DNA of 64,000 bases from Fidelibacterota bacterium. Lineage in GTDB: Bacteria > Fidelibacterota > UBA2242 > B5-G15. Where the stretch lies: positions 42,542 to 106,541 of the forward strand of contig JACDNV010000006.1 in the NCBI GenBank assembly GCA_017656425.1, written 5' to 3'. Shown in pieces: positions 10,895 to 59,464 of this stretch; within the stretch, counting starts at the first letter, position 1, and every line of letters starts with the position of its first letter. The translations under genes were made by a program, and so were the position numbers. The notes below the pieces were generated by a model, which saw only the letters and a list, made by a program, of their open reading frames with translations, was not told the DNA's origin and did no database searches.

Positions 10895-11695
10895 ATGATG
10901 ATCAATATCGACTATAAAAGCGGAATTAAAACCCTTCTGGATGAGTATAAGGGGGTTCTTAACGAAGAAATTAAAAAGGGATTGGAATGGAGACACAAAA
11001 TAGAGAGTAGAAAATTGTCCTGTGAAGATCAACAGGAGTTATTGAAAGATGTAATTGCTCAATTACTTGTTCAGGGGAAAAGTGCAAAGGGAGTAGAAAT
11101 ACAGATCAATAACATTAAAGAAGTAATTGGAGAATGGAGTACAAAAAACGTTGAGAAAAACTTGGATACTTTGGGAATGTCAAACAGGAAAATACAGAAG
11201 TTGAGAGATATTTTACAGTATTTAAAAAGCAACTCTATTGCTGTTTGGGTAATTAAACTGCATGAAGATAACAATCACATACCTCGTATGGGATTAAAAA
11301 GCGATGATGATTTTCTCAAATCCCATGGTTTTTATGAACATTTACCTGTTGACAGGCATACTCAACGTTTTTTATTTAGAACAGGCATAATTCAGTGGTA
11401 TCTAAAGAAAAATAACGATGATGTGTTAACCTTGTTTTCGGAAACATATGAAAAGAAATATAAATTTTTCCAGAAAATCGTAGTAGCACTTTGTGAAAAG
11501 TTCTGTGATGATGTATACATACAGATTCCAGATGTAAAGTTGAGATTAGCAGAAAATCCAGGCATTCTTGACATTGTGATATGGCGTCATTGTGGAGAAG
11601 ATGAAAATCTGGGTTGTAGAAATATCTGTGGAAATATATCAAGATGTAATGAATGTGTATTTAAGGAGGCTTGTTTATGGCATTTATTGAAATAA
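10895..11695 (+). CDS. Endonuclease III-like HhH-GPD superfamily protein with C-terminal Cys cluster (putative [4Fe-4S])
   Basis: IPRMGLKSDDDFLKSHGFYEHLPVDRHTQRFLFRTGII matches the HhH motif plus the VDTHVxRVxxR motif of EndoIII/MutY (LPGVGrKTA.....fg.p..PVDTHV.RV..Rlg). The C-terminus CGEDENLGCRNICGNISRCNEC resembles the EndoIII FeS loop (C-x6-C-x2-C-x5-C). Confidence 0.45.
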   Translation: MMINIDYKSGIKTLLDEYKGVLNEEIKKGLEWRHKIESRKLSCEDQQELLKDVIAQLLVQGKSAKGVEIQINNIKEVIGEWSTKNVEKNLDTLGMSNRKIQKLRDILQYLKSNSIAVWVIKLHEDNNHIPRMGLKSDDDFLKSHGFYEHLPVDRHTQRFLFRTGIIQWYLKKNNDDVLTLFSETYEKKYKFFQKIVVALCEKFCDDVYIQIPDVKLRLAENPGILDIVIWRHCGEDENLGCRNICGNISRCNECVFKEACLWHLLK

Positions 11696-12216: not shown

Positions 12217-12903
12217 TTATTTAATTTTTTGCATTATTATTAAATACTTAAATCCTCTTAAATAGAAATTATACTTTTTAGCTCTTTGATGCCAGATGGG
12301 AGTATTTGAAGTCTGATTATGTCTTGCCACACAGACAATATCTACTGGTTTAAAATATTTTTCGAGAATAGAGTACATCTTAAATCCTACTGGTACAAAT
12401 ATTTTCTTTTTTGCTTGATCTCCAATAAGCCAAGCAATATACTTTCCTTTCTTTAAAATTCGATGTGCTTCTTTTGCAACCTTATCTAATTCTTCGAAAA
12501 ATCTGGGATTTTCACAAGAAATATTACCAATATTGTCTGGGCGGTCATTGTACCTAATGTTGTCTGAATAAGGTGAATCTATAAAAACAAAATCTGCTAC
12601 CCCGTTCTTTAATGGTAATCTTCTAGCGTCGGCTTGTTTTATATCCTTCCTATAAGGAACAATATCAAAACCTAAAACCTTTCGTTTTTCCTCTTTGCAA
12701 ACATCAATAGTAGTTCCACTCCCACACATTGGATCTACTACTAATTCACCTTCTTTGGTGTATCTCTGAATTAAATTCCAAATAACGAATGCAGGAGTTA
12801 CTCCTCTATATTTATTGTCTCCGTGAGGTCTATTACCATAATTTTGTGTTGGATAGTCCCAAAGAGTTGTGGTTTCAAATGGAGGCTTATTATTATTTCT
12901 CAT
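12217..12903 (-). CDS. DNA methyltransferase (N6-adenine or N4-cytosine), R-M methylase 1
   Basis: Motif I VVDPMCGSGTT and motif IV FIDSPY ((D/S)PPY-type). First gene of a three-gene M-R-M operon on the minus strand. Confidence 0.8.
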   Translation of the reverse strand: MRNNNKPPFETTTLWDYPTQNYGNRPHGDNKYRGVTPAFVIWNLIQRYTKEGELVVDPMCGSGTTIDVCKEEKRKVLGFDIVPYRKDIKQADARRLPLKNGVADFVFIDSPYSDNIRYNDRPDNIGNISCENPRFFEELDKVAKEAHRILKKGKYIAWLIGDQAKKKIFVPVGFKMYSILEKYFKPVDIVCVARHNQTSNTPIWHQRAKKYNFYLRGFKYLIIMQKIK

Positions 12904-41740: not shown

Positions 41741-43474
41741 CTACTTCATTAATACCATCTTCTTTGTGATCTTCTGTCCAGCAAATTCAACGGTATAGAA
41801 ATAAACTCCACTTGCTAAGTTCGATCCGTCAAAAGTAATATTATATGTTTTCGCAATACCTTCTCCATTCATTAACGTTGTAACTTCCCTACCCAGCATA
41901 TCAAATACTTTCACAGTAACTTTACCTGAATGTGGTAATGTAAAAGTGATATTTGTTGTTGGGTTAAATGGATTTGGATAATTCTGATTTACTTTAAATC
42001 CTTTTAATACATTATTTTCTTCCCTTACTCCAACACCCTGTGGTAATCTACCTTCATCTAATGCTGCAAGTAATTCCTCGTATTGATTATCTCTAATTTG
42101 TAACCATGAACTTTTTTGATCAGGGAACCAGTTTAAATCACCTATAGGATAACCATCGGCATCTACTATATCATCATCACTATATGACAAATCTATTGGT
42201 ACAGGCCAATCTGGATAAACATAAAAATCAGAACCTACAAATACCAATCTCCAGTCTGGTAATATCACTGCCTTAGTAATGTCCATAGTATTAATAGCGA
42301 AATCTCTCAGAGTATCTACATAGGTAGTAAGTAAATTCCTTGGATCAGTGAAATTTGGTAATTTCTCATACCAGGTACCTTCTACTAGATATGGCCAGTT
42401 GTTATCATCATCAAACATTGCCTTCGTTCTTGTATTCATCTTAATTGTTTGGTCATACCATTCATCTGTATTATTTATATTGTTATCTTTCATATATTGA
42501 GCCAAGTTTAATAACCTCGAATCCCAATAAACCAAATTCCTATCAACTAAGACCTTCCTATCAACCTGGTCCATATCAGATGGCAAAGTATCTACATTTA
42601 TAATACCAAGCGGTAATTTATCCTGATCTACTTCAGGAAAATCTTCATCAATATAAGTATAAGGCTGAACGTTACTGTTTACAAAAATGTTATTCGTCAC
42701 AACCCATCTGCTTTGAAAACCGTTAGTCTCAAAAATAATACCAGCACAGTTGATAAAAGTATTGTGATTAAACATTAACAGTTTAATAGGATAATTTCTA
42801 AATTTGTACATCATACCCTGTGCTACAACATGAGTTGAGTTTTCAACCCATATTGTGTCTGTAGCATTATCTACATTATCATATACACCACCATTTCTTC
42901 TACATTCCTGACCACTTAAGTTTACAAAATAGGAATCTCTGATGTAAACTCTCGTCCCAGCCACAGCGTTAGAAGCTATTATCACCCATCTTGTTCGCTC
43001 AGCAATACAATTCTCTAAAGTAATACGACAATTTGGCTGCGTGAACCAGAAGAAAGTCCAACCAAGAGTTCCTTCCGCTGATGCCGGTACTATACATACA
43101 TTTTTAAGAGTAAGGTCTCCCCCAGGATTAATACCGCCTGAGTTACCACCTTTACCACAGATCACCGGAAACATCTTTTGTGGATCACCATTATACAATG
43201 GTTCTGTAGCTTCACCTACGATAACAGTATGCCTATCAGATTTTGTAGTTGGATTACTACCTAATTCATACAATTCACCAGCTTTTAGCAGGTATACACG
43301 ACCTTCTGGTACATTTGCGGTATCATAAGTAATTGCCTCATATAGATACTCTGGTAATACAACTGCAGTATCCCCGCGAAATTCCTCAACATAGTCTGAA
43401 ATAGGGCTTTCTTGAGCAGCTAGCATTACAACCATTGCTAACACTACTAAGGTAACTAAACTCAATTTCTTCAT
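41741..43474 (-). CDS. T9SS-secreted right-handed parallel beta-helix protein (pectate-lyase-fold), paralogue A
   Basis: Signal peptide. Repeated beta-helix rungs (...TNNIFVNSN..., ...HNTFINCAG...). CTD NYPNPFNPTTNITF...SGVYFYTV. Similar in architecture to 54502..56415. Confidence 0.6.
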   Translation of the reverse strand: MKKLSLVTLVVLAMVVMLAAQESPISDYVEEFRGDTAVVLPEYLYEAITYDTANVPEGRVYLLKAGELYELGSNPTTKSDRHTVIVGEATEPLYNGDPQKMFPVICGKGGNSGGINPGGDLTLKNVCIVPASAEGTLGWTFFWFTQPNCRITLENCIAERTRWVIIASNAVAGTRVYIRDSYFVNLSGQECRRNGGVYDNVDNATDTIWVENSTHVVAQGMMYKFRNYPIKLLMFNHNTFINCAGIIFETNGFQSRWVVTNNIFVNSNVQPYTYIDEDFPEVDQDKLPLGIINVDTLPSDMDQVDRKVLVDRNLVYWDSRLLNLAQYMKDNNINNTDEWYDQTIKMNTRTKAMFDDDNNWPYLVEGTWYEKLPNFTDPRNLLTTYVDTLRDFAINTMDITKAVILPDWRLVFVGSDFYVYPDWPVPIDLSYSDDDIVDADGYPIGDLNWFPDQKSSWLQIRDNQYEELLAALDEGRLPQGVGVREENNVLKGFKVNQNYPNPFNPTTNITFTLPHSGKVTVKVFDMLGREVTTLMNGEGIAKTYNITFDGSNLASGVYFYTVEFAGQKITKKMVLMK

Positions 43475-43512
43475 GCTACACCTCCTTTTTTTAACGAATA
43501 CATTTATTAATC

Positions 43513-46500
43513 CTAAAATTTATAGCGTAATACAAGTTCGTATAATGTAGGCGTATACAATTCACCCACCAGAGTTCGTTCTATCTTATCACTTCCAGGC
43601 CTCTTGAATTCTCTATAATTTTTAATTGATGTCCCAGTAAGATTTACAATATTAAATTGCACACTTAGACCCTTAACCGGTAATTTTTGTTTTACTGTTA
43701 GATCCCACCTTGTAATAATTCCAGTATAAACATCATCTTCAGGTCTTGAACCAATATAGGAAACCTCATCATCCGTTAAATTAAATGATAACCTACCAGA
43801 AAAACCTTTATAATCAAACCCCAGGATTAGATTTAAAATGTGATCTGCCTGATGAAGTAGCCTATCTTTATATGTTTTTTCTTTGGTTATATATTTGTAT
43901 TTCTTTACCTTAATCGGACCTACCTGTTCATAATACGCTGAATCTGTATTTTCTATCCTTAAGTATTTCATACTCGACCAGGTCCTGGTATAGTTCACAT
44001 TTATAACGAGAGAATTAAATGGCTTGGGCAAATACCACAAGTTTGACTGCCATTCGAATTCTATACCCCTAACATATCCAGGATATTTATTATTTATATA
44101 TGAATTTATAAGTAATGATTTTTCTGGCAATTTACTCCAGCCCAACTTCTGCATTAATGCAGTATCAGGAAAATTAATCTCATATTTGTCAATATTTTGA
44201 TAATATACTGACGTTGAGAAAAATACATTCTCCAATTTTTTATAGAAAGGAGCAATAGAAATCAATCCAATATTATGACTATAAATTGAAAGCGCGGCAT
44301 CGTAATTTGTCACTTCTGTGGGCTTAAGTTTAGGATTTCCAACCCTTGTGTATCCTCCTGGTTCATATAAGACAGTAGGCACAATTGCCAAATAATCTGG
44401 TCTTGATATTGCCTCTGTATATGCAAGTCGTAGATCTGCCCACTCTGTAAGCTTATATTTTAGCTGCAAATTAGGAAACCAATTTACATCAGATCTGTCT
44501 ACTTCATCTATATCTGTCGAATCATCCTGAACTAAAGCATCTCCATCGACAGGGTGGGTAACAATTAGTATATGACCATCATAATTCATCCTATACTCTT
44601 CCCATCTAATTCCTCCAAGCAATGTTAATCTAGGCCCTATTTTGAAAGTACTCATAAAGTATCCTGCGAGAAAATCTTCTGTCCCGACAAAATCATCTTG
44701 CGTTGACCACTCTTCATGTGTTCCTATACCCCATCCTTTCGGCGCAATTAAGAAAAATGGATCCATTATACCTTTGTCTACTACATATTTAATCGGATAT
44801 TTACCATCAAGAAAATAATTACCTCGTTCGTAACTACTCCTCACCACCTCCATAAATCTCAAAGGATGTGTCGGGCTTAAAGGCTCACTCTCATCTCTCA
44901 CGATAGTATAACCGTCTATATAATAATATATCTTACCATCTTTTTTCTCCCGAGGTATTGCATCGTAAAAGTCAGTATTGCCGGTTCTATTATAATAAGC
45001 TTCTATATCATTTTTACGATATGAATGATCATATTTCCCACCAAATTTTATATCAGCAGTTACTCCATATAATAGCTTAACTGGAATACTAAAATCTACC
45101 TTTGATGTATACAAATGTTGATTAAAATCCTCTTCTCTCGTAGTTGCCCAACCGTGTAACTCAGCCCTATAATAAGAAGAATCATCTATTTCAATTTCAT
45201 AAACATCATTAAGATCCATAGTATCACCCGCAGTCAAGTAATTAATTCCCGCTCCAAAAGGAGATCTATCTTCAAAATTAAAATTCTGGCCTGGATCAGC
45301 GTATCTCTCCACTGTATTTTTATTACTGGATGAATGAGACAAACTAAACTCCATTTTCAGATTACCGAATTTATATTCACCCATTAAAGAATTTATCATC
45401 AATTGTCTCTCATGAAAATCTCTAAATATTGAATACTGCCCCAAGTTTTCTGTAAAAGTAAAAATGTTCCTATAATTAGCAAAATCATTTCTGTTATGAG
45501 ATATGGAATTTTGTAAAATAATCTTACCATTCGGTAATTCATAATCCAGAATAATACTTCCTCCTTTATTGGAAATAATATTCTCTTCATCAGTATAATC
45601 AAAACCAGTCATTCTATATATTCCTTCACCAAATGGAACTGTTGGATCATTAATACTGAAAGATGAACCTATTCTATCATTTCCCACATTAGATCTATCC
45701 ATGTGCCCCTGAATAAAAACTCCTAACTTATTATTAAAAAACCTCTTACTAATACTTGCCCATGACTTATAATTATCAGTTGTTCTATCTAATCCATTAT
45801 AGAAACCTTGACCAAAGAAATCAAAATGTGAACCCTCTGGTGCCTCCATTATTTTTAAATTAACGACACCACCTATTGAATTAGCATCCATATCTGGAGT
45901 TAATACCTTAAAAACTTCTATTCCAGACAACATATTAGAAGAAATAAAACCAAGATTTACTGATCGATCACTTAAGCTTGTAGATGGTAACTGCACCCCA
46001 TTCATCAGAACCACATTCTGTTTTGCCTGAATACCTCTGATTACTACCTTATCCCCATCCTGTAAAGATATACCTGGCAATCTACTAAGGGCAGCTGCAG
46101 CACTTTCGTCAGGCAATTCTTGAATTTTCTCGGAAGAAACTACATTCTTAACGCTTAATGCATTCAATTGCTCATTTATCGCATTTAATTGACCTTTTGC
46201 CTGTGCAGTAACTACTACTTCCTGTAGCTTTAAGCCTTTATAATCCAAAAACGCAGTAACATTGGTTTCTTCTCCAGAGTTAACTACAACAGGAATATCT
46301 TTATCTTCATAGCCAATGAATCTTATTTGTAAAATATAATTTCCGGGAGGTACCCCATCTATCTCAAATCTACCTTCTTCATTAGAGGCAGCACCCATAT
46401 ATGTCCCTTTTACCACTACATTTGCAAATGGTAGCGGTTTTTTAGTCTTACTGTCATAGACAAAACCTACTATTTTCCCGTTTTCCTGTGGAAAAACTAT

Positions 46501-46560
46501 TTGAAAAAAAGTTAAAAAACAGAGTAATGAAATTGTTGCGAAGCTAATTACCTTATTCAT
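43513..46560 (-). CDS. TonB-dependent receptor, SusC/RagA-like (N-terminal CarbopepD_reg domain), paralogue A
   Basis: 1015 aa. CarbopepD-like GKIVGFVYDSKTKKPLPFANVVV...GNYILQIRFIGYE, a plug region and a C-terminal aromatic residue (…LRYKF). Confidence 0.8.
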   Translation of the reverse strand: MNKVISFATISLLCFLTFFQIVFPQENGKIVGFVYDSKTKKPLPFANVVVKGTYMGAASNEEGRFEIDGVPPGNYILQIRFIGYEDKDIPVVVNSGEETNVTAFLDYKGLKLQEVVVTAQAKGQLNAINEQLNALSVKNVVSSEKIQELPDESAAAALSRLPGISLQDGDKVVIRGIQAKQNVVLMNGVQLPSTSLSDRSVNLGFISSNMLSGIEVFKVLTPDMDANSIGGVVNLKIMEAPEGSHFDFFGQGFYNGLDRTTDNYKSWASISKRFFNNKLGVFIQGHMDRSNVGNDRIGSSFSINDPTVPFGEGIYRMTGFDYTDEENIISNKGGSIILDYELPNGKIILQNSISHNRNDFANYRNIFTFTENLGQYSIFRDFHERQLMINSLMGEYKFGNLKMEFSLSHSSSNKNTVERYADPGQNFNFEDRSPFGAGINYLTAGDTMDLNDVYEIEIDDSSYYRAELHGWATTREEDFNQHLYTSKVDFSIPVKLLYGVTADIKFGGKYDHSYRKNDIEAYYNRTGNTDFYDAIPREKKDGKIYYYIDGYTIVRDESEPLSPTHPLRFMEVVRSSYERGNYFLDGKYPIKYVVDKGIMDPFFLIAPKGWGIGTHEEWSTQDDFVGTEDFLAGYFMSTFKIGPRLTLLGGIRWEEYRMNYDGHILIVTHPVDGDALVQDDSTDIDEVDRSDVNWFPNLQLKYKLTEWADLRLAYTEAISRPDYLAIVPTVLYEPGGYTRVGNPKLKPTEVTNYDAALSIYSHNIGLISIAPFYKKLENVFFSTSVYYQNIDKYEINFPDTALMQKLGWSKLPEKSLLINSYINNKYPGYVRGIEFEWQSNLWYLPKPFNSLVINVNYTRTWSSMKYLRIENTDSAYYEQVGPIKVKKYKYITKEKTYKDRLLHQADHILNLILGFDYKGFSGRLSFNLTDDEVSYIGSRPEDDVYTGIITRWDLTVKQKLPVKGLSVQFNIVNLTGTSIKNYREFKRPGSDKIERTLVGELYTPTLYELVLRYKF

Positions 46561-51242: not shown

Positions 51243-51288
51243 CAATACAAAAATAAAGACAGCCTGCTGTATGTATGGCAGGCTGCCT
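51243..51288 (-). terminator. rho-independent terminator downstream of the large T9SS repeat protein gene
   Basis: Perfect 8-bp stem cagcctgc/gcaggctg (51260-51287). On the minus strand it is followed by tctttatttttg. Confidence 0.65.
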
Positions 51289-51322
51289 TCATTTTATAAC
51301 ATTTTTACCGTATATAATATTC

Positions 51323-54300
51323 CTACTTCAGTAACATTAGCTTTTTAACCTTAGTAAATTCACCAGCTACCATTTTGTAGAAGTAAACTCCAGATGGTAA
51401 TCTACCAGCATCAAAAGTAATTCTATAATAACCAGCTTTGTAGTATCCCTTTGCAAGTGTGGCTACCTGTCTTCCCATAATATCGTAGACCACTATCTTC
51501 ACATCAGTATCTTTCGGTAATGTAAATTCGATATTAGTCGTCGGGTTGAATGGGTTCGGATAGTTCTGTTTGAGTTCAAATTCCACTGGTCTATTAGCAA
51601 AATCAGGTCCTATAGCGACTTCTGGAGTATTTGTTGTATCAGCTTTCAGCCCGATAAATTTTATAGCCGCAACTCTACTATTAGTAGTATTTAGTGCGAA
51701 CAGAAAGCTATTTATCGTGTCAGTAACCACATTATTATCATATGCAGATGCTTCAAATATATAGCTATTATCTTTCTTGGATAATTTAATTTTAACACAT
51801 GCATTTCCATCGGCATCTTTACCATAATAAAGTTCGAACTCGTATTTACCTGAATCTCCTATTGCTCCTGCAGGAGATTGAACTGCATCGCTTAAAACAT
51901 AATTGTCCGGACCATTCGTCGATAACCATACATTATTCACTACTGCACCAATCGAACCACTCACACCGGAAGCAAGCCAGTATGGTAATGGATTGTCACC
52001 ACTTGGGGGAATGAACAAATATCCAGTTCCAATTTCTGAACCTGTCCAGTGATAATCAACGAGTTCGCCAGCATCTGAATTGAACAATCCCAATCTCATT
52101 GCATTGTCATTATCAAAACCACCTCCAATAAGTTCCATTTCACCATATACTTTAACTGCTCTACCAGCTTCAGGTATGATAGGTGCATCAAATTCACCCC
52201 TAATAGCTATCCAAGCTGAAGTTTGAACGATAGGATATAAAGTAAAATCTCCAACAAATTCTCCAGGCTGTAATGTCCATTGACCATTACCATTCCTACC
52301 ACCTACAAATCCAATATCTGATAAGTAATGATTAACAAAAGGAGGTAATGGTATTTTTATTGGATCACCCTTATCTACCTTAACCTCGTAAAGTTTTACC
52401 AACTTTGTCTGTGAATCCTTATTGAAACCAAAGCATATTAGATTAAATTTTGTAGTTATCTGTGCTGAATCATAGGCTACGCCGGCAAACCAGTATTTTT
52501 CATTTTCTTCAACAAGATACCAGCGGATTTCATTAATACCGCCAGGTAATGCTTTAACCGAAATCGCGAAATCATACATCCCGGCTATCATTTCTGCATT
52601 ACGTGGTCTTTGCTCAACTTGTGATAGTGCCCATGTTCCAGCACTGTTAGTACTGTACCAACTACCATCAGGCTCTCTCCAAACAACTCCAACTTTGGCA
52701 TAAGCAGGTACCCCTCTCCAGGTATTTGACATAGTTCCCGTTCCAGTTCGAGGTGTGAATAGGTAGGTATCCCAAGTTCCTTCACTAACCCATCTTGCAG
52801 AATCAGTCAGTGCATTCTCTAACTTAGCATCCTCTTGATATGCTAACCCATATCTTATATGGGTATATGCGCTACCACCACCTCCTCCTATGAGCTCAAG
52901 TTTACCAGTTACAATAATTGCCTTCTCCTCACTAATCTCAACAGCTTCGCCAAAACCACCTGCTATAGTTGCCCAGTTTGATGGCGGATTCGTAAGTGTT
53001 GTGTCTCCAAATATTGCATCGCCAACCAGCGTCGTCGAATCATTAAGAATAGCCCAATTCATATCTGCATTCAATCTATCTTTACCCCACAGATCAACAT
53101 AAAATGGTTCCCATGGAGCTTCAGGCACCTCTATAGGATCTCCCATGTCTACTTCAACACCATACAATTTTACCAGCTTTGTCTGTGAATCCTTATTAAA
53201 ACCGAAGCATATCTGGTTAAATTTTGTAGTTATCATCACTGAATCATAGGCTACACCACCAAACCAATATTTATTATTTTCCTCAACAAGATACCAGCGT
53301 ATTTCGTTTATACTATCAGGTAATACTCTAACAGAAATTGCAAAATCATACATTCCTGCAATCATTTCTGCATTACGAGGTGCCTGTAACTGTTGCGATA
53401 AAGCCCACGTTCCAGCGCTATTAGTACTGTACCAACTACCATCAGGCTCTCTCCAGACTACTCCAACTTTGGCATAAGCAGGTACTCCTCTCCAGGTATT
53501 TGACATAGTTCCCATTCCAGTTCGAGGTGTGAATAGGTAACTAAACCAATTCTTGGGGCTTTCCCACTTTGCACTATCGGTATTTTGATACTTCAACACA
53601 GCGCTATCCTGATATGCAACTGCATACCTCATATGGGTATATGCACTACCACCACCTCCTCCTATGAGCTCAAGTTTACCACGAATAATCACAGCTTTAT
53701 CGGTAGTTGCCTGTACTTCGTCAAAACCACCTGCTATGGTTGCCCAGCCTGATGGCGGATTCGTAAGTGTTGTGTCTCCAAATATTACATCACCTCTTGG
53801 CATTTCAGGTACGTTAAGAAGATCCCAATTCGTATCTGCATTCAATCTATCCTTACCCCATTTGTAAACAGGAATAGGAAAAGTCCTAAGAATAAACTCG
53901 ATATCATCAGCATACCAGATTGTAGTAACTCCAGTACCTCCGATATTTCCAGTACCGGCACAATTAATTCCAAAAGCTAAATAGATAGTATCTTCGAGTG
54001 ATGCAAGGTAACCAGGTGACGGATTGGTTAACTTGAAAGCTATCTCTTCCCACTCGGTCGAAGCCTCATTTACATTACGATTATAAGACCCAACCTTTAC
54101 ACTTGAATTATTATAGGCTTGTGCTGTTGGTGAGTCCTGATAGGCTTCTACAATAATATCTTTCCAACCCACATCTCCCTGTTTGAAGAAAAACTTAATT
54201 TTAATCGAATCATAATCTGCAAGTGTTTTGCCTTCTTCCAGTACCACCTTAACTACTGGTGCAGCATTGTAATTGTTAGGCGTGAATTTTAACGCCTTAT

Positions 54301-54493
54301 TACCAGGCTCTCCGGGTAATGTGTCGATTACAGCAGTTTCCCCTGTATTCCAACCAATAACATCAAGCGTATCACCTATTTCGTAATCTTCAAAATCAAT
54401 TACCTGTGCCTGTAATGCTATCCCGCTTAAAAATAGGATACACATTACAAATACGGGCCAAATGTTTCTTTTTTTCTTCATTTTACCCTCCAT
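51323..54493 (-). CDS. large T9SS-secreted protein with three tandem ~257-aa internal repeats (two near-identical), unknown function
   Basis: 1056 aa with a signal peptide. Repeats begin WGKDRLNAD(T/M)NW... and contain GKLELIGGGGGSAYTH and WRGVPAYAKVGVVWREPDGSWYSTNSAGTWALSQ. CTD NYPNPFNPTTNIEF...SGVYFYKM. Confidence 0.6.
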   Translation of the reverse strand: MEGKMKKKRNIWPVFVMCILFLSGIALQAQVIDFEDYEIGDTLDVIGWNTGETAVIDTLPGEPGNKALKFTPNNYNAAPVVKVVLEEGKTLADYDSIKIKFFFKQGDVGWKDIIVEAYQDSPTAQAYNNSSVKVGSYNRNVNEASTEWEEIAFKLTNPSPGYLASLEDTIYLAFGINCAGTGNIGGTGVTTIWYADDIEFILRTFPIPVYKWGKDRLNADTNWDLLNVPEMPRGDVIFGDTTLTNPPSGWATIAGGFDEVQATTDKAVIIRGKLELIGGGGGSAYTHMRYAVAYQDSAVLKYQNTDSAKWESPKNWFSYLFTPRTGMGTMSNTWRGVPAYAKVGVVWREPDGSWYSTNSAGTWALSQQLQAPRNAEMIAGMYDFAISVRVLPDSINEIRWYLVEENNKYWFGGVAYDSVMITTKFNQICFGFNKDSQTKLVKLYGVEVDMGDPIEVPEAPWEPFYVDLWGKDRLNADMNWAILNDSTTLVGDAIFGDTTLTNPPSNWATIAGGFGEAVEISEEKAIIVTGKLELIGGGGGSAYTHIRYGLAYQEDAKLENALTDSARWVSEGTWDTYLFTPRTGTGTMSNTWRGVPAYAKVGVVWREPDGSWYSTNSAGTWALSQVEQRPRNAEMIAGMYDFAISVKALPGGINEIRWYLVEENEKYWFAGVAYDSAQITTKFNLICFGFNKDSQTKLVKLYEVKVDKGDPIKIPLPPFVNHYLSDIGFVGGRNGNGQWTLQPGEFVGDFTLYPIVQTSAWIAIRGEFDAPIIPEAGRAVKVYGEMELIGGGFDNDNAMRLGLFNSDAGELVDYHWTGSEIGTGYLFIPPSGDNPLPYWLASGVSGSIGAVVNNVWLSTNGPDNYVLSDAVQSPAGAIGDSGKYEFELYYGKDADGNACVKIKLSKKDNSYIFEASAYDNNVVTDTINSFLFALNTTNSRVAAIKFIGLKADTTNTPEVAIGPDFANRPVEFELKQNYPNPFNPTTNIEFTLPKDTDVKIVVYDIMGRQVATLAKGYYKAGYYRITFDAGRLPSGVYFYKMVAGEFTKVKKLMLLK
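52340..53880 (-). repeat. intragenic tandem duplication, period ~774 bp, ~90 % nucleotide identity between copies
   Basis: The spurious plus-strand ORFs 52890..53102 and 53664..53867 are near-identical and offset by 774 nt. The protein repeats 1 and 2 are also near-identical. Confidence 0.8.
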
Positions 54494-54501
54494 ACTATTA
54501 T

Positions 54502-56415
54502 TTATTTAATTAATAATAATTTTCTTGTTAGCATTATGCCATCTGTTTCTAAACGATAAATATATACTCCACTTGGTAAGTCTTTACCATCAAATACTAC
54601 TTTATAATTACCTTTCTGCTTGAATTCACTGACTATAGTTGTAACCTCTTTTCCAATCATATTATAAACTTTTAGTTTAACAAAACCTGCCTTGGGAAGA
54701 TAATATTCAATAGTTGTAACGGGATTGAATGGATTTGGATAATTCTGTTTTAATTCATAGGATTTTAACGCAATTTCATTAATATCTTTTATTGCATTAC
54801 CTTGACTATCAGGATGTACTCCGGTTACCAACCATGTCCATATCTTTTCTCTTTCCTGATCAGCCTGCTGCAACCACTGCGAATAATAATCCTCAGCCCC
54901 TTCCCTTAAATCTGGGTTCCACCAATTATACAAATCTCCTAATGGGAATCCACCCATAGCATAGGACTTAAGCAGTTCATTTGTATATGCAAGGTTTTCT
55001 GGTAAAGGCCATTCCTGATTTTTACCAGCTTCAGGTTTATAATCCCACATGTAATCAGCATTGGTTGACCATTTTTGTTCAAGAAATAATTTTAGACTAT
55101 CGAGGTCAAGTGGTGGTTCAAAAAAGCCCGGATTTAAAGTTTCTGTCAAGGTTTGAGGATCGGAGGTAATATCTAGATTATTTGCCCTGTTTATATAGGG
55201 AAAAGCTTTCACAACTTCACCAGTTGCAGAATCCACAATTGTTGAATCACAGAAATCCTTTGTCCAGCTATCCAGCATTGGCCTTGGATAAGGAATTTCA
55301 TCAAATCTCCTTTCTCTATATAAACCTTGAACATAAGGACAGCCTACATCCATTATTCTACTACTCGGCTTCCACTCAGCGTCTTTAGTCCAGCCTCCTC
55401 TCATCCAATCTACTAACCAGCTGTCAACATAATAAGCGTTATGTGCTATTAGAATATGTCTATCCTTGTCACTAAAAGGAACTTTAAAATCAATTGAGTC
55501 AGCAGGTGTAATTGACATTATAGCACCTGAAGGATCCTCTCCTTGAGCTGGAATAAAACCCAGCATATAAGCATTTACAAATAATGAATTTGTAACATTT
55601 GCCCAGTAATATACACCACCTTCAAGGGAAAACATAACAACATTATAAAATGTACAGTGATTAAAATATACTGTATCTGCATAGTTATTCATCTCCTGCA
55701 TATAAACATATCCCATATTGGCAAAAGTACAATTTTCAAAGGATACATAGTCTGTATGATAGTCCGGCACGTCATAAGGAAACGATACCGCGCGCCCATA
55801 ATACATATAATGCTTATCTACACAATTACGAAAATAACAATTTTTAAGTTCAAGATGTAAATGTACCGCTCGAACACAGATACTTCCAGAAGCTGTTACT
55901 GCAGGACATGGCATCCACTCAAAAACACATCCTTCGAAATAACCATACTGTTGTGTTGTATCCGTTGCATCCTGATCGAAAACTATAGGTGTTCCAGTTT
56001 GAACTCCATCTATATCTGCATACCTTACCCATATATTCTTCATAATGAGATGACCGAATACTCTTATATGAAATTCTTTAGTAACAGCACCACTTGCAGT
56101 CCATAAAATTTGAGGTGGTGCAGTTTCCTGTGTATTACCAGGAGGTGGAGCAACTAACTCTAAGGTCTCTCCTTCGGGAACTTCTATAGTAGCTGTCAAG
56201 ACATATTGTTCATAGGGTTTTAATCTAAAGACTGTATTGGATAATGTTCCATTATTTATAGCTTCCTGTACTGCTTCATTCAATGTTCCTTCTTGCCCAC
56301 CTGATTCCCAGTATCCAGGTACATCTACAGTATCTTTTTGTTGCCCAAATAATAATGGAAATGTAACAACAAAAATAATTAAACTTAAGATAATTTTTTT
56401 CATCCTTTCCTCCAC
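54502..56415 (-). CDS. T9SS-secreted right-handed parallel beta-helix protein, paralogue B
   Basis: Signal peptide. Beta-helix rungs (NCTFANMGY, NHCTFYNVV, TNSLFVNAY). CTD NYPNPFNPVTTIEY...SGVYIYRL. Immediately downstream of TonB-dependent receptor paralogue B. Confidence 0.6.
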   Translation of the reverse strand: MEERMKKIILSLIIFVVTFPLLFGQQKDTVDVPGYWESGGQEGTLNEAVQEAINNGTLSNTVFRLKPYEQYVLTATIEVPEGETLELVAPPPGNTQETAPPQILWTASGAVTKEFHIRVFGHLIMKNIWVRYADIDGVQTGTPIVFDQDATDTTQQYGYFEGCVFEWMPCPAVTASGSICVRAVHLHLELKNCYFRNCVDKHYMYYGRAVSFPYDVPDYHTDYVSFENCTFANMGYVYMQEMNNYADTVYFNHCTFYNVVMFSLEGGVYYWANVTNSLFVNAYMLGFIPAQGEDPSGAIMSITPADSIDFKVPFSDKDRHILIAHNAYYVDSWLVDWMRGGWTKDAEWKPSSRIMDVGCPYVQGLYRERRFDEIPYPRPMLDSWTKDFCDSTIVDSATGEVVKAFPYINRANNLDITSDPQTLTETLNPGFFEPPLDLDSLKLFLEQKWSTNADYMWDYKPEAGKNQEWPLPENLAYTNELLKSYAMGGFPLGDLYNWWNPDLREGAEDYYSQWLQQADQEREKIWTWLVTGVHPDSQGNAIKDINEIALKSYELKQNYPNPFNPVTTIEYYLPKAGFVKLKVYNMIGKEVTTIVSEFKQKGNYKVVFDGKDLPSGVYIYRLETDGIMLTRKLLLIK

Positions 56416-56422
56416 TTATTAT

Positions 56423-59400
56423 TTAAAATCTAAACCTTATACCTGCATTCGCGACCATACCATAGTATTTCATATTTGTAAATCCATCAATGGTTATCTG
56501 AGCAGATTCATTTATTTCATTATTGAGATTTGTTACATCGAGATATATTTCAGATTTCCATACCGGTAATTTCTGCCTTACAGATAGATCAATTTTAAAA
56601 TAATCCCTTGTATATCCATCCTGTTCTGGGTACGAACCAACATAACTTGCCATATCGCCCTGATAATTAAATGACAATCTAATAGAAAATCCTTTATGAT
56701 CATAACCAACGTAAGCATTCAGAATATCATCAGGTTGATATATAAGCCTTCCTGTACGAGTACTATCAACAACGAATGTCTCCGTTTGTCGTGGACCAAC
56801 AATCACAGTTTTATCTTCTCTTAATGGATATTTAGTCTCTGATTTTATTTTTGCATAATTTATACCAAACACCACACCTTTCATTAATCCAGGCATAAAC
56901 CATAACCTTGTTTGGAAATCAAATTCGATTCCCTTAACATATGCTGGCCAGATACCATTAATATATGTAGACACTGTAGCTTTTCGTTCAGGTTTGTACA
57001 CACTTACTGTACCATCTTTATTCACAATAACGATCTGAAAATCGTCTATTGTTTTGATTGTTTCATACTTTTTTACATCATATAATCTATAGTTCGTATG
57101 ATATATAAAATCTTTTATCTTTTTATAAAAAGCGCCAATCGTTAGAAGCCCCAGCCTGTTTCCGTGAAATGCTATTGCAAAATCATGATTAAAAGATTGG
57201 CCCGGTTTTAAATCAGGATTACCAGCCCATACATAGTTTCTTGGATTATTAAAACTTATCTTGGGCGACATCTGATGGTATGCAGGACGTGCCAGACTTT
57301 TAGTATATGCATATCTAATATCCATCCAGTCAAACGGAGAAATCTTTATAGAAACCGCTGGCAGTAAGTACTCATTTGGATTTCTTGTTTCAACTGTATC
57401 TACCGCCTGGTTCTCTGGATTTCGCATGTCAAACATATTATACACCGTATAATTATTTATTGTCTTTTCATATCGAGCACCGCCAATAAATTTAATTTTC
57501 CATAAATTTATCTCAGTCATCAGATACCCGGCATAATATTCCTCACTAAAAATGTAATCATTAGCTGATTGCTGGAATAGCCCATTATACCAGCCTCCTG
57601 TCTCATCAGGACCGCCAGTGGCTTTACCAGCCCATCTTGGATCACTATTTAAATATTCTGCTATTTTAAGAAGAAGGTCTGAATCGGGCACCCAGTGCAT
57701 TCTCCCAAATCTATCATTTAAGAACGGTTCCATCAATTCTGCATCACCCATAAAATTTGTCCCTGGATACCTTGCAACCTGAGGATCTACAAAAAGATTA
57801 AATCTTGCAGCAACCGTATCAAGCATACGCTGTTGATAATTCCCAGAATATTGCATACCAGCATAGGGTGCTTCCTGATCATTTATAATCTCTTTAAAGA
57901 AATATTCACCTCCGAATTTTACATAACCAGAAATGAAACTACCTATTTTATATGGTACTTTCAAAAATGATTTAACAGATTTCTTAGATTCTTTATATAA
58001 TGTAGACCATAATTGTATGGTATTTAAATATATCGAATCGGGTCCCGGATAAATCCAGTTGACCTTTAATGACTCTGGTTTAGTATTTTCAGGTACTTTA
58101 CCGACACCCTTATACGCAACACCTGATCTGAAAGAAACATACGGAGATTCAGGTAAATTATTCTTTGACATTGTATTTGCTAACTTCAAATTAAAAATTA
58201 CACCATTAAAGTCATTATTAAATTCAAGTGAGTTTAATAATATATCGATATTATTTGATCCTTCCCTCATATTGAATCCAATTAACCTATCATTATAATT
58301 CAGTACAGTCCTGTAATCCTCAAAGTCAGAATTACGGCGAGCATAAAGGTTTAACATTTTTATGTATCCATATGGCAATCTGTAATCCAATATTAAGTTT
58401 GCTCCATAACGTTCCCTTGTTTCTACATGCCTATTCAAAGTTACATTAGTAACCCTTACAGGCCGATAACCGGTTAATGTATCAATTTCTACACTTGTGG
58501 TTATATAACCAGCATTCATAATATCAGCATCTCTATCGTATTTTTCCATATTCCCGAGTAAATAAAAACCCAATCTTTCATTAAAAATTCTATTGCTTAC
58601 AGAGACAACAAACCTATAGTTACCGTAATTATTTGTCATATAGGTATATCCAGACTGACCTAATATATCATACCTGAATCCTGAGGGTGCTTCCCTGAGT
58701 TGCATCTCAACTGTACCGCCAACAGTATTAGCATTCATATCAGGTGTTATAGACTTATAAACCGATATAGATTTAATCATATAAGGAGAAATCATGCTCA
58801 AATCTACACTTCTATCAGTATTAACGTGACCAGCTCCACCTGCTATTGCTGTTACTCCCATTTGGGTACTTCCCGTAGATGTTAATCTAACGCCTTCAAC
58901 TGAAACCGAATTATACTGGGGCGCTATACCTCTGATGACCACCTTATTTGCTTCTCCTGAGCTTTCGAGTGTGGATACGCCGGGTAACCTACTCAGGGCC
59001 TGAGCAGCATTAAAATCTGGCAATTCCTGAAGCCTGGCTTCTGAAACAACATTTGCTATTTTATCTGATGCCAACTGCTGACTTATAGCTTGTACCTGTC
59101 CCAAAGCCTGTGCGGTTACTACCACTTCTTTACCCCTTACTGTAATAGGACTAAGACCAAAATCTTGTGTTACTGATCCTGTTGTAGGAACTTTAACTTT
59201 GATTGTACGTGTTTCATATCCTATATATGAAACTACAACTTCATATTCTCCTTCCGGAACATTTTGTATGTAAAAATTTCCATCTAAATCTGAAGCAGCT
59301 CCAAAGTTAGTACCTTTCAAATAAATATTAGCAGCTGGCAGGGGTTTTTCACTGTTTTTATCATATACTTTACCCTTTAAAACACCAGCATTAATACTAT

Positions 59401-59464
59401 TAAATGTAAATAATATTAAAAATGAAAAGATTAATACTCTAATCCTCTTAATATTAGAGTTCAT
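56423..59464 (-). CDS. TonB-dependent receptor, SusC/RagA-like, paralogue B
   Basis: 1013 aa. GVLKGKVYDKNSEKPLPAANIYL...GEYEVVVSYIGYE, plug region, C-terminal F. Same architecture as 43513..46560. Confidence 0.8.
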   Translation of the reverse strand: MNSNIKRIRVLIFSFLILFTFNSINAGVLKGKVYDKNSEKPLPAANIYLKGTNFGAASDLDGNFYIQNVPEGEYEVVVSYIGYETRTIKVKVPTTGSVTQDFGLSPITVRGKEVVVTAQALGQVQAISQQLASDKIANVVSEARLQELPDFNAAQALSRLPGVSTLESSGEANKVVIRGIAPQYNSVSVEGVRLTSTGSTQMGVTAIAGGAGHVNTDRSVDLSMISPYMIKSISVYKSITPDMNANTVGGTVEMQLREAPSGFRYDILGQSGYTYMTNNYGNYRFVVSVSNRIFNERLGFYLLGNMEKYDRDADIMNAGYITTSVEIDTLTGYRPVRVTNVTLNRHVETRERYGANLILDYRLPYGYIKMLNLYARRNSDFEDYRTVLNYNDRLIGFNMREGSNNIDILLNSLEFNNDFNGVIFNLKLANTMSKNNLPESPYVSFRSGVAYKGVGKVPENTKPESLKVNWIYPGPDSIYLNTIQLWSTLYKESKKSVKSFLKVPYKIGSFISGYVKFGGEYFFKEIINDQEAPYAGMQYSGNYQQRMLDTVAARFNLFVDPQVARYPGTNFMGDAELMEPFLNDRFGRMHWVPDSDLLLKIAEYLNSDPRWAGKATGGPDETGGWYNGLFQQSANDYIFSEEYYAGYLMTEINLWKIKFIGGARYEKTINNYTVYNMFDMRNPENQAVDTVETRNPNEYLLPAVSIKISPFDWMDIRYAYTKSLARPAYHQMSPKISFNNPRNYVWAGNPDLKPGQSFNHDFAIAFHGNRLGLLTIGAFYKKIKDFIYHTNYRLYDVKKYETIKTIDDFQIVIVNKDGTVSVYKPERKATVSTYINGIWPAYVKGIEFDFQTRLWFMPGLMKGVVFGINYAKIKSETKYPLREDKTVIVGPRQTETFVVDSTRTGRLIYQPDDILNAYVGYDHKGFSIRLSFNYQGDMASYVGSYPEQDGYTRDYFKIDLSVRQKLPVWKSEIYLDVTNLNNEINESAQITIDGFTNMKYYGMVANAGIRFRF

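Follow-up and report, generated by a model that had tools for sequence, protein, structure and literature searches.

A predicted surface glycan-binding protein with three ConA-like-fold units in a putative xylan locus of a Fidelibacterota bacterium

The gene at positions 51323-54493 of a 64,000-nucleotide stretch of DNA from a Fidelibacterota bacterium (assembly GCA_017656425.1, contig JACDNV010000006.1, positions 42,542 to 106,541; the whole stretch is called the window, and all coordinates are counted within it) probably belongs to a locus for xylan utilisation and codes for a protein that binds glycans at the cell surface, a reading built on predicted folds and on the company the gene keeps. 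Its 1056-residue product consists, in order, of a signal peptide, a module with a CBM22-like fold, three domains of ~250 residues with the ConA/legume-lectin fold (R1, R2 and R3) and a type IX secretion system (T9SS) sorting domain of type A. An earlier annotation made from the DNA letters alone (the sequence-only reading) had recognised the open reading frame (ORF) as a T9SS cargo and proposed that it may be a multivalent carbohydrate-binding scaffold, which is still the best explanation, with the binding itself predicted from modelled folds. What did not hold was its claim of a very recent, near-identical duplication, for R1 and R2 are the products of an old in-gene duplication kept by purifying selection.

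Architecture, folds and operon

The assignment to T9SS cargo is borne out by two models of the C-terminal sorting domain, each above its curated cutoff: PF18962 (41.6 bits against 27, E=1.5e-10) and TIGR04183 (43.3 bits against 23, E=2.6e-11). At the N-terminus, read by eye from the translation, a basic n-region and a hydrophobic core lead to ALQA/Q, a signal-peptidase-I type site with Gln at +1, and no lipobox is found in the translation at the end of the signal peptide. R2 finishes in the proline-rich linker GDPIKIPLPP; its ending, KLYEVKVDKGDPI, differs slightly from the one quoted in the sequence-only reading.

No credible match to the repeat unit exists in Pfam or NCBIfam, whether single units, the 42 units of our alignment (A1) or the whole protein are searched, and none was found among PDB chains by sequence or profile, as the earlier statement that no known family is obvious had anticipated. 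None of the 42 units matches any of the Pfam lectin families, even at E<=1. A match to the BgaA-like carbohydrate-binding module (CBM) family PF21606 (24.6 bits, below cutoff, lying across the R1/R2 junction) was rejected because it occurs in one of the 42 units, at E=0.013. The AlphaFold2 (AF2) model of R2, made from the 42-sequence alignment, is a single all-beta domain of 15 beta-strands with a predicted local distance difference test score (pLDDT) of 94.7 and a predicted template-modelling score of 0.92. In a Foldseek search of the PDB the top 23 matches of this model are legume lectins (among them 1gz9, 4d69 and 1gnz, each at probability 1.0), with E from 9e-7 to 2e-5; their template-modelling (TM) scores are 0.34-0.52, mostly 0.41-0.50, at 7-13% sequence identity. 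Next come calreticulin, the L-lectin module of SraP (4m00, likewise at probability 1.0) and Emp46p/ERGIC-53, followed by weaker matches to PL14, alginate and ulvan lyases (E 1.8e-4 to 5e-4) and to the Teredinibacter X122 domain. Matching a fold and no sequence family, the unit makes up a sequence family of its own, and a new one, in the ConA-like lectin/glucanase fold; the "lectin-like core" of the sequence-only reading is thus supported at the level of fold (E~1e-6) and not at that of sequence. The columns conserved in both the internal and the terminal types of unit described below are mostly Trp, Tyr and Gly, with one Arg and one Asn, and the conserved positions include Arg85, Tyr115, Tyr178, Tyr205, Asn222 and Gln166; among the columns kept in both types none is Glu, Asp, His or Lys. 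In internal units the linker G-x-P-I-x-x-P-x-x-P-W is conserved at >=90%.

The N-terminal module was modelled with a pLDDT of 92.6. Foldseek ranks 4xun first (E=2e-6), the CBM22-2 domain from Paenibacillus Xyn10C, which binds xylan, and further fold matches are to CBM4, CBM16, CBM27 and CBM11, to the CBM22 structures 1dyo and 1h6y and to 2wys (Clostridium thermocellum xylanase Xyn10B), all at 10-16% identity. By sequence it has no significant match to PF02018 (CBM_4_9, which we take to cover CBM22 as well); at E<=1 Pfam returns only DUF5125, at 21.8 bits and below cutoff, and a profile run against PDB chains has no match under E=0.16. The module, with its counterparts in P0072-P0120 (numbers beginning with P denote homologous proteins and those with L denote loci), forms a family of its own of ~170 residues with a CBM22-like fold, unrecognised by Pfam.

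The gene is the last of three on the minus strand, separated by 7 and 8 nt (Table 1), and its placing as third member of a receptor/beta-helix operon stands. The first gene encodes a TonB-dependent receptor that passes the cutoff of TIGR01782 (319.6 bits against 310) and scores 78.7 bits with the SusC/RagA model, short of the cutoff of 368. The second encodes a 637-residue T9SS cargo with a match below cutoff to the beta-helix family PF13229 (Beta_helix, 18.1 bits). The order of receptor, T9SS partner of ~600 residues and lectin-repeat protein is kept in nine of the nine loci inspected (L001, L002, L005, L006, L007, L010, L011, L012 and the window), which belong to Melioribacteraceae, KSB1, Marinimicrobia, Calditrichaceae and unclassified metagenome-assembled genomes (MAGs). 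Where the cassettes were compared by BLAST the receptors are 45-59% identical, and the partner has orthologues of 40-60% identity at the same position in five loci, with matches in size and position in three more. No SusD-family match was found in the cassette. The 637-residue partner occupies the place held by SusD in the loci of Bacteroidota.

The neighbours of the cassette in related loci are GH10, GH43, GH30, GH2, GH3, CE15 and SASA esterases, MFS transporters and regulators of the XylR and LacI types. In the window they are GH10 (with CBM4_9 and a T9SS domain), GH67, GH127, GH51-like, GH12, GH9, a CBM9 protein and GH116-like, a gene content by which we read the window as a hemicellulose locus, chiefly for xylan. 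At least six proteins encoded in the 30-60 kb stretch of the window carry PF18962 sorting domains, so that much of the enzyme set of the locus is predicted to be surface-attached or secreted by the T9SS.

A hairpin past the stop codon of the lectin-repeat gene is likely the terminator of the operon. It has GC-rich arms of 8 bp with T-runs on both sides and lies between this gene and the GH127 gene, and by its form it could serve termination in either direction. The G+C content of the gene is 39.7%, against 34.9% for the whole window. A second receptor, at 43513-46560 on the minus strand and about 30% identical to receptors of the first type, is followed by a 577-residue T9SS protein, the pair spanning 41741-46560. 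The last ~155 residues of this protein are 39% identical to the C-terminal 170 of the 637-residue partner, a similarity extending beyond the sorting domain alone. No multi-lectin gene accompanies the second pair, which is followed by a peptidyl-prolyl isomerase-domain (PPIase-domain) protein instead.

Table 1. Coordinates of the lectin-repeat gene, the domains of its product and neighbouring features in the window.
Feature	Coordinates	Strand	Basis or remark
Whole gene, 1056-residue ORF	51323..54493	-	ORF list and translation
Signal peptide, residues 1-29, MEGKMKKKRNIWPVFVMCILFLSGIALQA then QV	54407..54493	-	By eye from the translation; cleavage site inferred
N-terminal module, residues 30-205, beta-sandwich with CBM22-like fold	53879..54406	-	AF2 and Foldseek
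R1, residues 206-462, internal-type ConA-like domain	53108..53878	-	Family HMM score 283.6 bits
R2, residues 463-720, internal-type ConA-like domain	52334..53107	-	AF2 and Foldseek
R3, residues 721-968, terminal-type ConA-like domain	51590..52333	-	Family HMM score 203 bits
C-terminal T9SS sorting domain of type A, residues 978-1053	51335..51562	-	PF18962, TIGR04183
T9SS cargo of 637 residues, operon gene 2	54502..56415	-	PF18962, E=2.9e-9; 8 nt upstream of the 51323-54493 gene
TonB-dependent receptor, operon gene 1	56423..59464	-	N-terminal CarboxypepD_reg, Plug and CarbopepD_reg_2 domains
Hairpin, CAGCCTGC...GCAGGCTG, then TCTTTATTTTT	51248..51285	-	37 nt past the stop codon; by eye and by scan (+ strand)

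The repeat family and the function proposed for it

The repeat domain is rare. A word-indexed search of protein databases found 181 homologues at E<=1e-3, the best 120 of which are 590-1593 residues long, and an exhaustive search of 1.84 billion representatives with a hidden Markov model (HMM) of the family found only 196 clusters up to E<=1e-3, of which 99 also pass E<=1e-30. Named sources among the homologues are Melioribacteraceae, Ignavibacteriae, KSB1, Calditrichaceae, Marinimicrobia and a few MAGs labelled 'Bacteroidetes'. A scan of GTDB genomes with the single protein gave four loci, the closest being 51-58% identical. One homologue, P0067 (593 residues), is named 'DNA-binding transcriptional regulator YdaS (Cro superfamily)' by its JGI source; it is built of two whole lectin-fold units plus the beginning of another, and the name therefore looks like an annotation error.

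Members of the family have two to six units, most commonly three, and the units are of two types. In 85 of 92 proteins the nearest neighbour of the last unit is the last unit of another protein, and its median identity to the internal units of its own protein is 32%; R3 accordingly is a distinct paralogue, orthologous to the last unit of other family members. Among internal units, 105 of 188 have their nearest neighbour inside their own protein. Pairs of internal units that exclude the first have a median amino acid identity of 92% (>=95% in 17 of 46 pairs), and the first unit is more diverged from the other internal units (median 71%). Units 2-4 of P0003, which lies on a 786-kb contig, are 98.6-99.6% identical in DNA, with a synonymous divergence (dS) of 0.01-0.04; the internal units of P0018 are 96% identical in DNA (dS 0.09), and those of P0017 and P0012 have dS from 0.9 to above 1.8. 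DNA divergence of internal units thus takes a continuous range across the family, in which the window gene stands at 78% and dS 0.64; with only two internal units, it sits at 63% in the family distribution for the first against the other internal units. Two proteins on short metagenome contigs, P0049 (783 residues) and P0026 (1037 residues), are 98.7% identical and exactly one clean 254-residue unit apart, which is either a true copy-number polymorphism or a collapse in short-read assembly. We read the combination of homogenised centre and diverging edges as the signature of unequal recombination within the array, and family-wide the number of internal units appears to change through recombination between similar units of ~750 nt. 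The concerted evolution suggested by the sequence-only reading is therefore found in the family, where internal units of relatives reach 96-99.6% DNA identity, and not in this gene, whose two internal units are at 78% and show no conversion tract that stands out.

What accompanies the units varies. The N-terminal module occurs elsewhere in one to three copies ahead of GH10 domains (PF00331) in P0072-P0079, P0095-P0108 and others, as well as ahead of CBM9 modules in sugar-binding proteins, and many of the GH10 xylanases that carry it are T9SS-secreted; BLAST gave no link between the module and the window's own GH10 xylanase. In other members it is replaced by an N-terminal Mann_GBD or weak CBM4_9 match, or by CBM9 downstream of the units, and many (P0003, P0004, P0005, P0007 and P0009 among them) have no N-terminal module, the first unit starting from about residue 25. 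Single units co-occur with BNR/sortilin-type propellers, and one distant relative of the unit is found joined to a glucuronoyl esterase of family CE15.

From the predicted folds and the gene order we propose the following role. The protein would use Sec for export, followed by the type IX system for secretion. From what is established on T9SS cargo of type A, it would then lose its C-terminal sorting domain and be attached by its C-terminal end to the surface of the outer membrane. R3 would therefore lie nearest the membrane, adjoining the co-encoded TonB-dependent receptor and beta-helix partner, while R1, R2 and the N-terminal CBM22-like module would point outward on short proline-rich linkers. 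The several putative sites could hold xylan chains or oligosaccharides at the surface, both for T9SS-secreted enzymes of the GH10 type to cleave and for the receptor to take up, a role comparable to that of SusE/F-type proteins in Bacteroidota. The separate conservation of the terminal unit suggests that it may dock with the receptor or the partner. Binding is favoured over catalysis by the fold, by the associations of the modules, by the conserved aromatic, Arg and Asn positions and by the lack of conserved catalytic residues, and the existence of members without an N-terminal module suggests that the units are more than a spacer.

Several observations weigh against this interpretation. The structural matches of R2 are at superfamily level only (TM 0.42-0.50, with 7-13% identity), and the metal- and sugar-binding residues of legume lectins are not recognisably conserved in the family-wide columns. 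Some lyases and glycosidases adopt the ConA-like fold too, and R2 has matches to lyases of PL14 and to ulvan and alginate lyases at E~1e-4 to 5e-4. Homogenised internal repeats would fit a passive stalk equally well, and the neighbouring glycoside hydrolase families indicate hemicellulose generally and not xylan alone.

A stalk is the first alternative to be weighed, and we consider it unlikely: the lectin-fold units would be a passive spacer of variable length, of the kind found in Periscope Proteins, that binds no ligand and serves only to raise the N-terminal CBM above the lipopolysaccharide or surface layer. The homogenisation of internal units within genes, the variation in unit number and the pair of proteins one unit apart are all consistent with such a spacer, as are the conserved proline-rich linker and the variation in the type of N-terminal CBM among members. 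Many members, however, have no N-terminal module, so that the stalk would project nothing, and Trp, Tyr, Arg and Asn positions are common to the two unit types at 32% identity, which is beyond the usual need of fold maintenance. A lectin fold of 250 residues would moreover be unusually bulky for a stalk element, and at a DNA identity of only 78% the units of this gene would no longer allow easy switching of length.

Improbable to a greater degree is the alternative that the units are an undescribed family of polysaccharide lyases or glycosidases built on the ConA-like jelly roll. Such enzymes share the fold, as the Foldseek matches to PL14, alginate and ulvan lyases show, the Arg, Tyr, Asn and Gln positions named above are conserved, and the genomic setting is rich in carbohydrate-active enzymes. 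Against this, the family has no conserved Glu/Asp pair, His or Lys, the E-values of lectins are better than those of lyases by about two orders of magnitude, a catalytic domain repeated two to six times in tandem would be atypical, and the fusion partners are mostly CBMs and anchors. Glycan binding by the lectin-fold units thus remains the reading that we prefer.

The R1/R2 duplication and the assembly of the gene

The repeat is real, and the 774-nt period described in the sequence-only reading was recovered on self-comparison. In a full offset scan the top off-diagonal window of 300 nt is 86% identical at an offset of 774, against <=42% at every offset outside the repeat register and an in-frame background over 771 nt of 0.28 +/- 0.016 (maximum 0.35), which places the repeat far beyond chance. 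Direct-repeat detection found five collinear segment pairs within the gene, three spaced 774 nt (267 nt at 81%, 157 nt at 91% and 139 nt at 74% identity) and two spaced 771 nt (79 nt at 92% and 47 nt at 91%). The start-to-start spacing of R1 and R2 is 771 nt for the first ~55 codons and 774 nt thereafter, owing to an indel of one codon, and the two antisense ORFs that had been noted as mirroring each other (52890-53102 and 53664-53867) both exist, 774 nt apart. Tandem Repeats Finder reported nothing on the gene, because the longest period that it handles is 500.

The extent of the similarity is less than had been claimed. Over 257-261 aligned codons R1 and R2 are 77.7-78.3% identical in DNA and 74.7% in protein, not near-identical or about 90%, a level reached only in the sub-segments of 47-157 nt at 91-92%; per 30 codons the identity ranges from 63% to 96%. 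By the NG86 method the nonsynonymous divergence (dN) is 0.18 and dS 0.64-0.66 (dN/dS about 0.27), and of the 90 four-fold degenerate sites 22 are different, which gives a Jukes-Cantor distance of 0.30. The 30-codon window at 96% prompted us to consider a tract of gene conversion between R1 and R2, which was rejected: perfect identity extends over no more than 37 nt in a row, where the longest run in codon-column permutations has a mean of 27.6 (p=0.08). The third copy is indeed more diverged, R3 being 26-27% identical in protein to R1 and R2 (BLASTP E=1e-18 and 2e-16). The motif said to occur in each repeat is present in R1 and R2 (GKLELIGGGGGSAYTH); R3 has GEMELIGGGFDNDNAM in its place.

R1 and R2 are each other's nearest relatives, at 75% identity against 62% and 58% for the best units outside, and the duplication, or its last homogenisation, therefore postdates the split from every sampled relative. 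It is nevertheless old on the scale of strain divergence: the synonymous divergence between the units is 0.3-0.64 per site, against 1.3% between the two strains sampled. That strain comparison comes from L009, an independently assembled contig of 3525 nt from a JGI metagenome (3300033150). It aligns to 51319-54843 of the window at 98.7% identity, with 46 mismatches but not a single gap, and so carries all three units. As L009 is collinear and gapless across the whole gene, the three-copy structure is not a mis-assembly, a possibility that is excluded as far as it can be without reads, and the assembly hazard announced for this gene is not borne out. A protein 99% identical, P0001, comes from another metagenome, and the number of units is equal in the window gene and in L009, the only other strain sampled. 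It is therefore scarcely credible that the duplication in this gene is very recent, that concerted evolution continues in it or that its copy number was mis-assembled, since the real 774-nt period, the short segments at 91-92%, the 30-codon window at 96% and the mutual closeness of R1 and R2 are set against an overall DNA identity of 78%, dS of 0.64, a four-fold distance of 0.30, a longest identical run of 37 nt and the gapless, three-unit L009.

In two loci from GTDB MAGs the homologous gene is broken inside the second internal unit (L001 at about 12311-12466, L002 at about 11574-11672). Each break region holds a run of 100 N; near-identical repeats may have caused a gap in the scaffold there, or the collection may have masked the bases. 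For annotation the gene in the window can be taken as correctly assembled, and relatives with near-identical units are probably not always so.

Comparison with known systems and significance

The closest functional comparison is with SusE/SusF and SGBP-B of Bacteroidota. As in those systems, the gene lies next to and downstream of that of an outer-membrane TonB-dependent transporter in a glycan-degradation locus, and the product is a non-catalytic string of beta-sandwich domains with a predicted surface location and several putative binding modules. It differs from them in having no lipoprotein signal, the predicted anchor being the T9SS C-terminal domain, and from SusE/F in its ConA-like fold and unrelated sequence. 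The locus, unlike SusE/SusF loci, has no SusD, the place after the receptor being taken by a T9SS protein of ~600 residues with a weak beta-helix match, and the receptor passes the TIGR01782 cutoff instead of that of SusC/RagA. By this analogy the lectin-repeat protein is best supported as a functional analogue of SusE/F or SGBP-B and not as a member of their families.

Two comparisons bear on single modules. The units resemble L-type lectins in their ConA-like beta-jelly-roll and, as in staphylococcal SraP, in lying within a bacterial surface protein; they differ in sequence identity (7-13%, with TM about 0.42-0.50), in the lack of any Pfam lectin match and in that the Ca/Mn- and sugar-binding residues are not recognisably conserved. 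The N-terminal module alone resembles CBM22 of GH10 xylanases, both in fold and in its tandem occurrence N-terminal to GH10 catalytic domains, and differs in having no significant sequence match to PF02018 or the PDB.

The array as a whole invites comparison with the Periscope Proteins (SasG, Rib, Sgo_0707 and CdrA), a class defined in PMC8201768. Common to both are a distal functional module, tandem folded domains, Pro-containing linkers and a C-terminal surface anchor, and the likeness extends in relatives to internal units that are 96-99.6% identical in DNA, to unit numbers of two to six and to the one pair a single unit apart. In this gene, in contrast, the internal units are only 78% identical in DNA and the single further strain sampled has an equal number of copies; the low identity between R1 and R2 indicates that a mechanism of the Periscope type is not active here. 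The units are also lectin-fold domains of ~250 residues that probably bind ligand themselves, and their host, a didermic member of the FCB group, is an environmental bacterium with a T9SS anchor and not a sortase/LPXTG anchor.

Surface capture of polysaccharides is well understood for Bacteroidota, where it is the work of SusC/D/E/F. To our knowledge it is hardly understood in those neighbouring phyla whose members break down plant matter in the ocean, in hot springs and in sediments. The receptor-linked cassette is kept across four phyla of minor or candidate standing. The literature on Melioribacter, Ignavibacteria and Caldithrix yielded no description of the family or the cassette, which is weak evidence of absence, as subscription journals were mostly uncovered. 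We put forward, tentatively and as a possibility that we rate below even, that the cassette may be an undescribed SusD-independent glycan-capture apparatus of Ignavibacteriota, KSB1, Calditrichota and Marinimicrobia, with T9SS-anchored binders made of a new family of ConA-like modules whose reach and valency would be tuned by recombination between repeats of ~750 nt.

What the analysis brings to light is a small family that neither Pfam nor NCBIfam models and that, in every xylan locus inspected from those phyla, accompanies one particular TonB-dependent receptor. Binding of xylan by the lectin-fold units, if it occurs, would make them a new family of carbohydrate-binding modules and would show how these bacteria manage without SusD; Melioribacter, whose orthologue is P0017 in locus L005, is cultivable and hence a possible system in which to test this. 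The family may also be an environmental, Gram-negative and T9SS-anchored case of the homogenisation of repeats and variation in length seen in Periscope Proteins.

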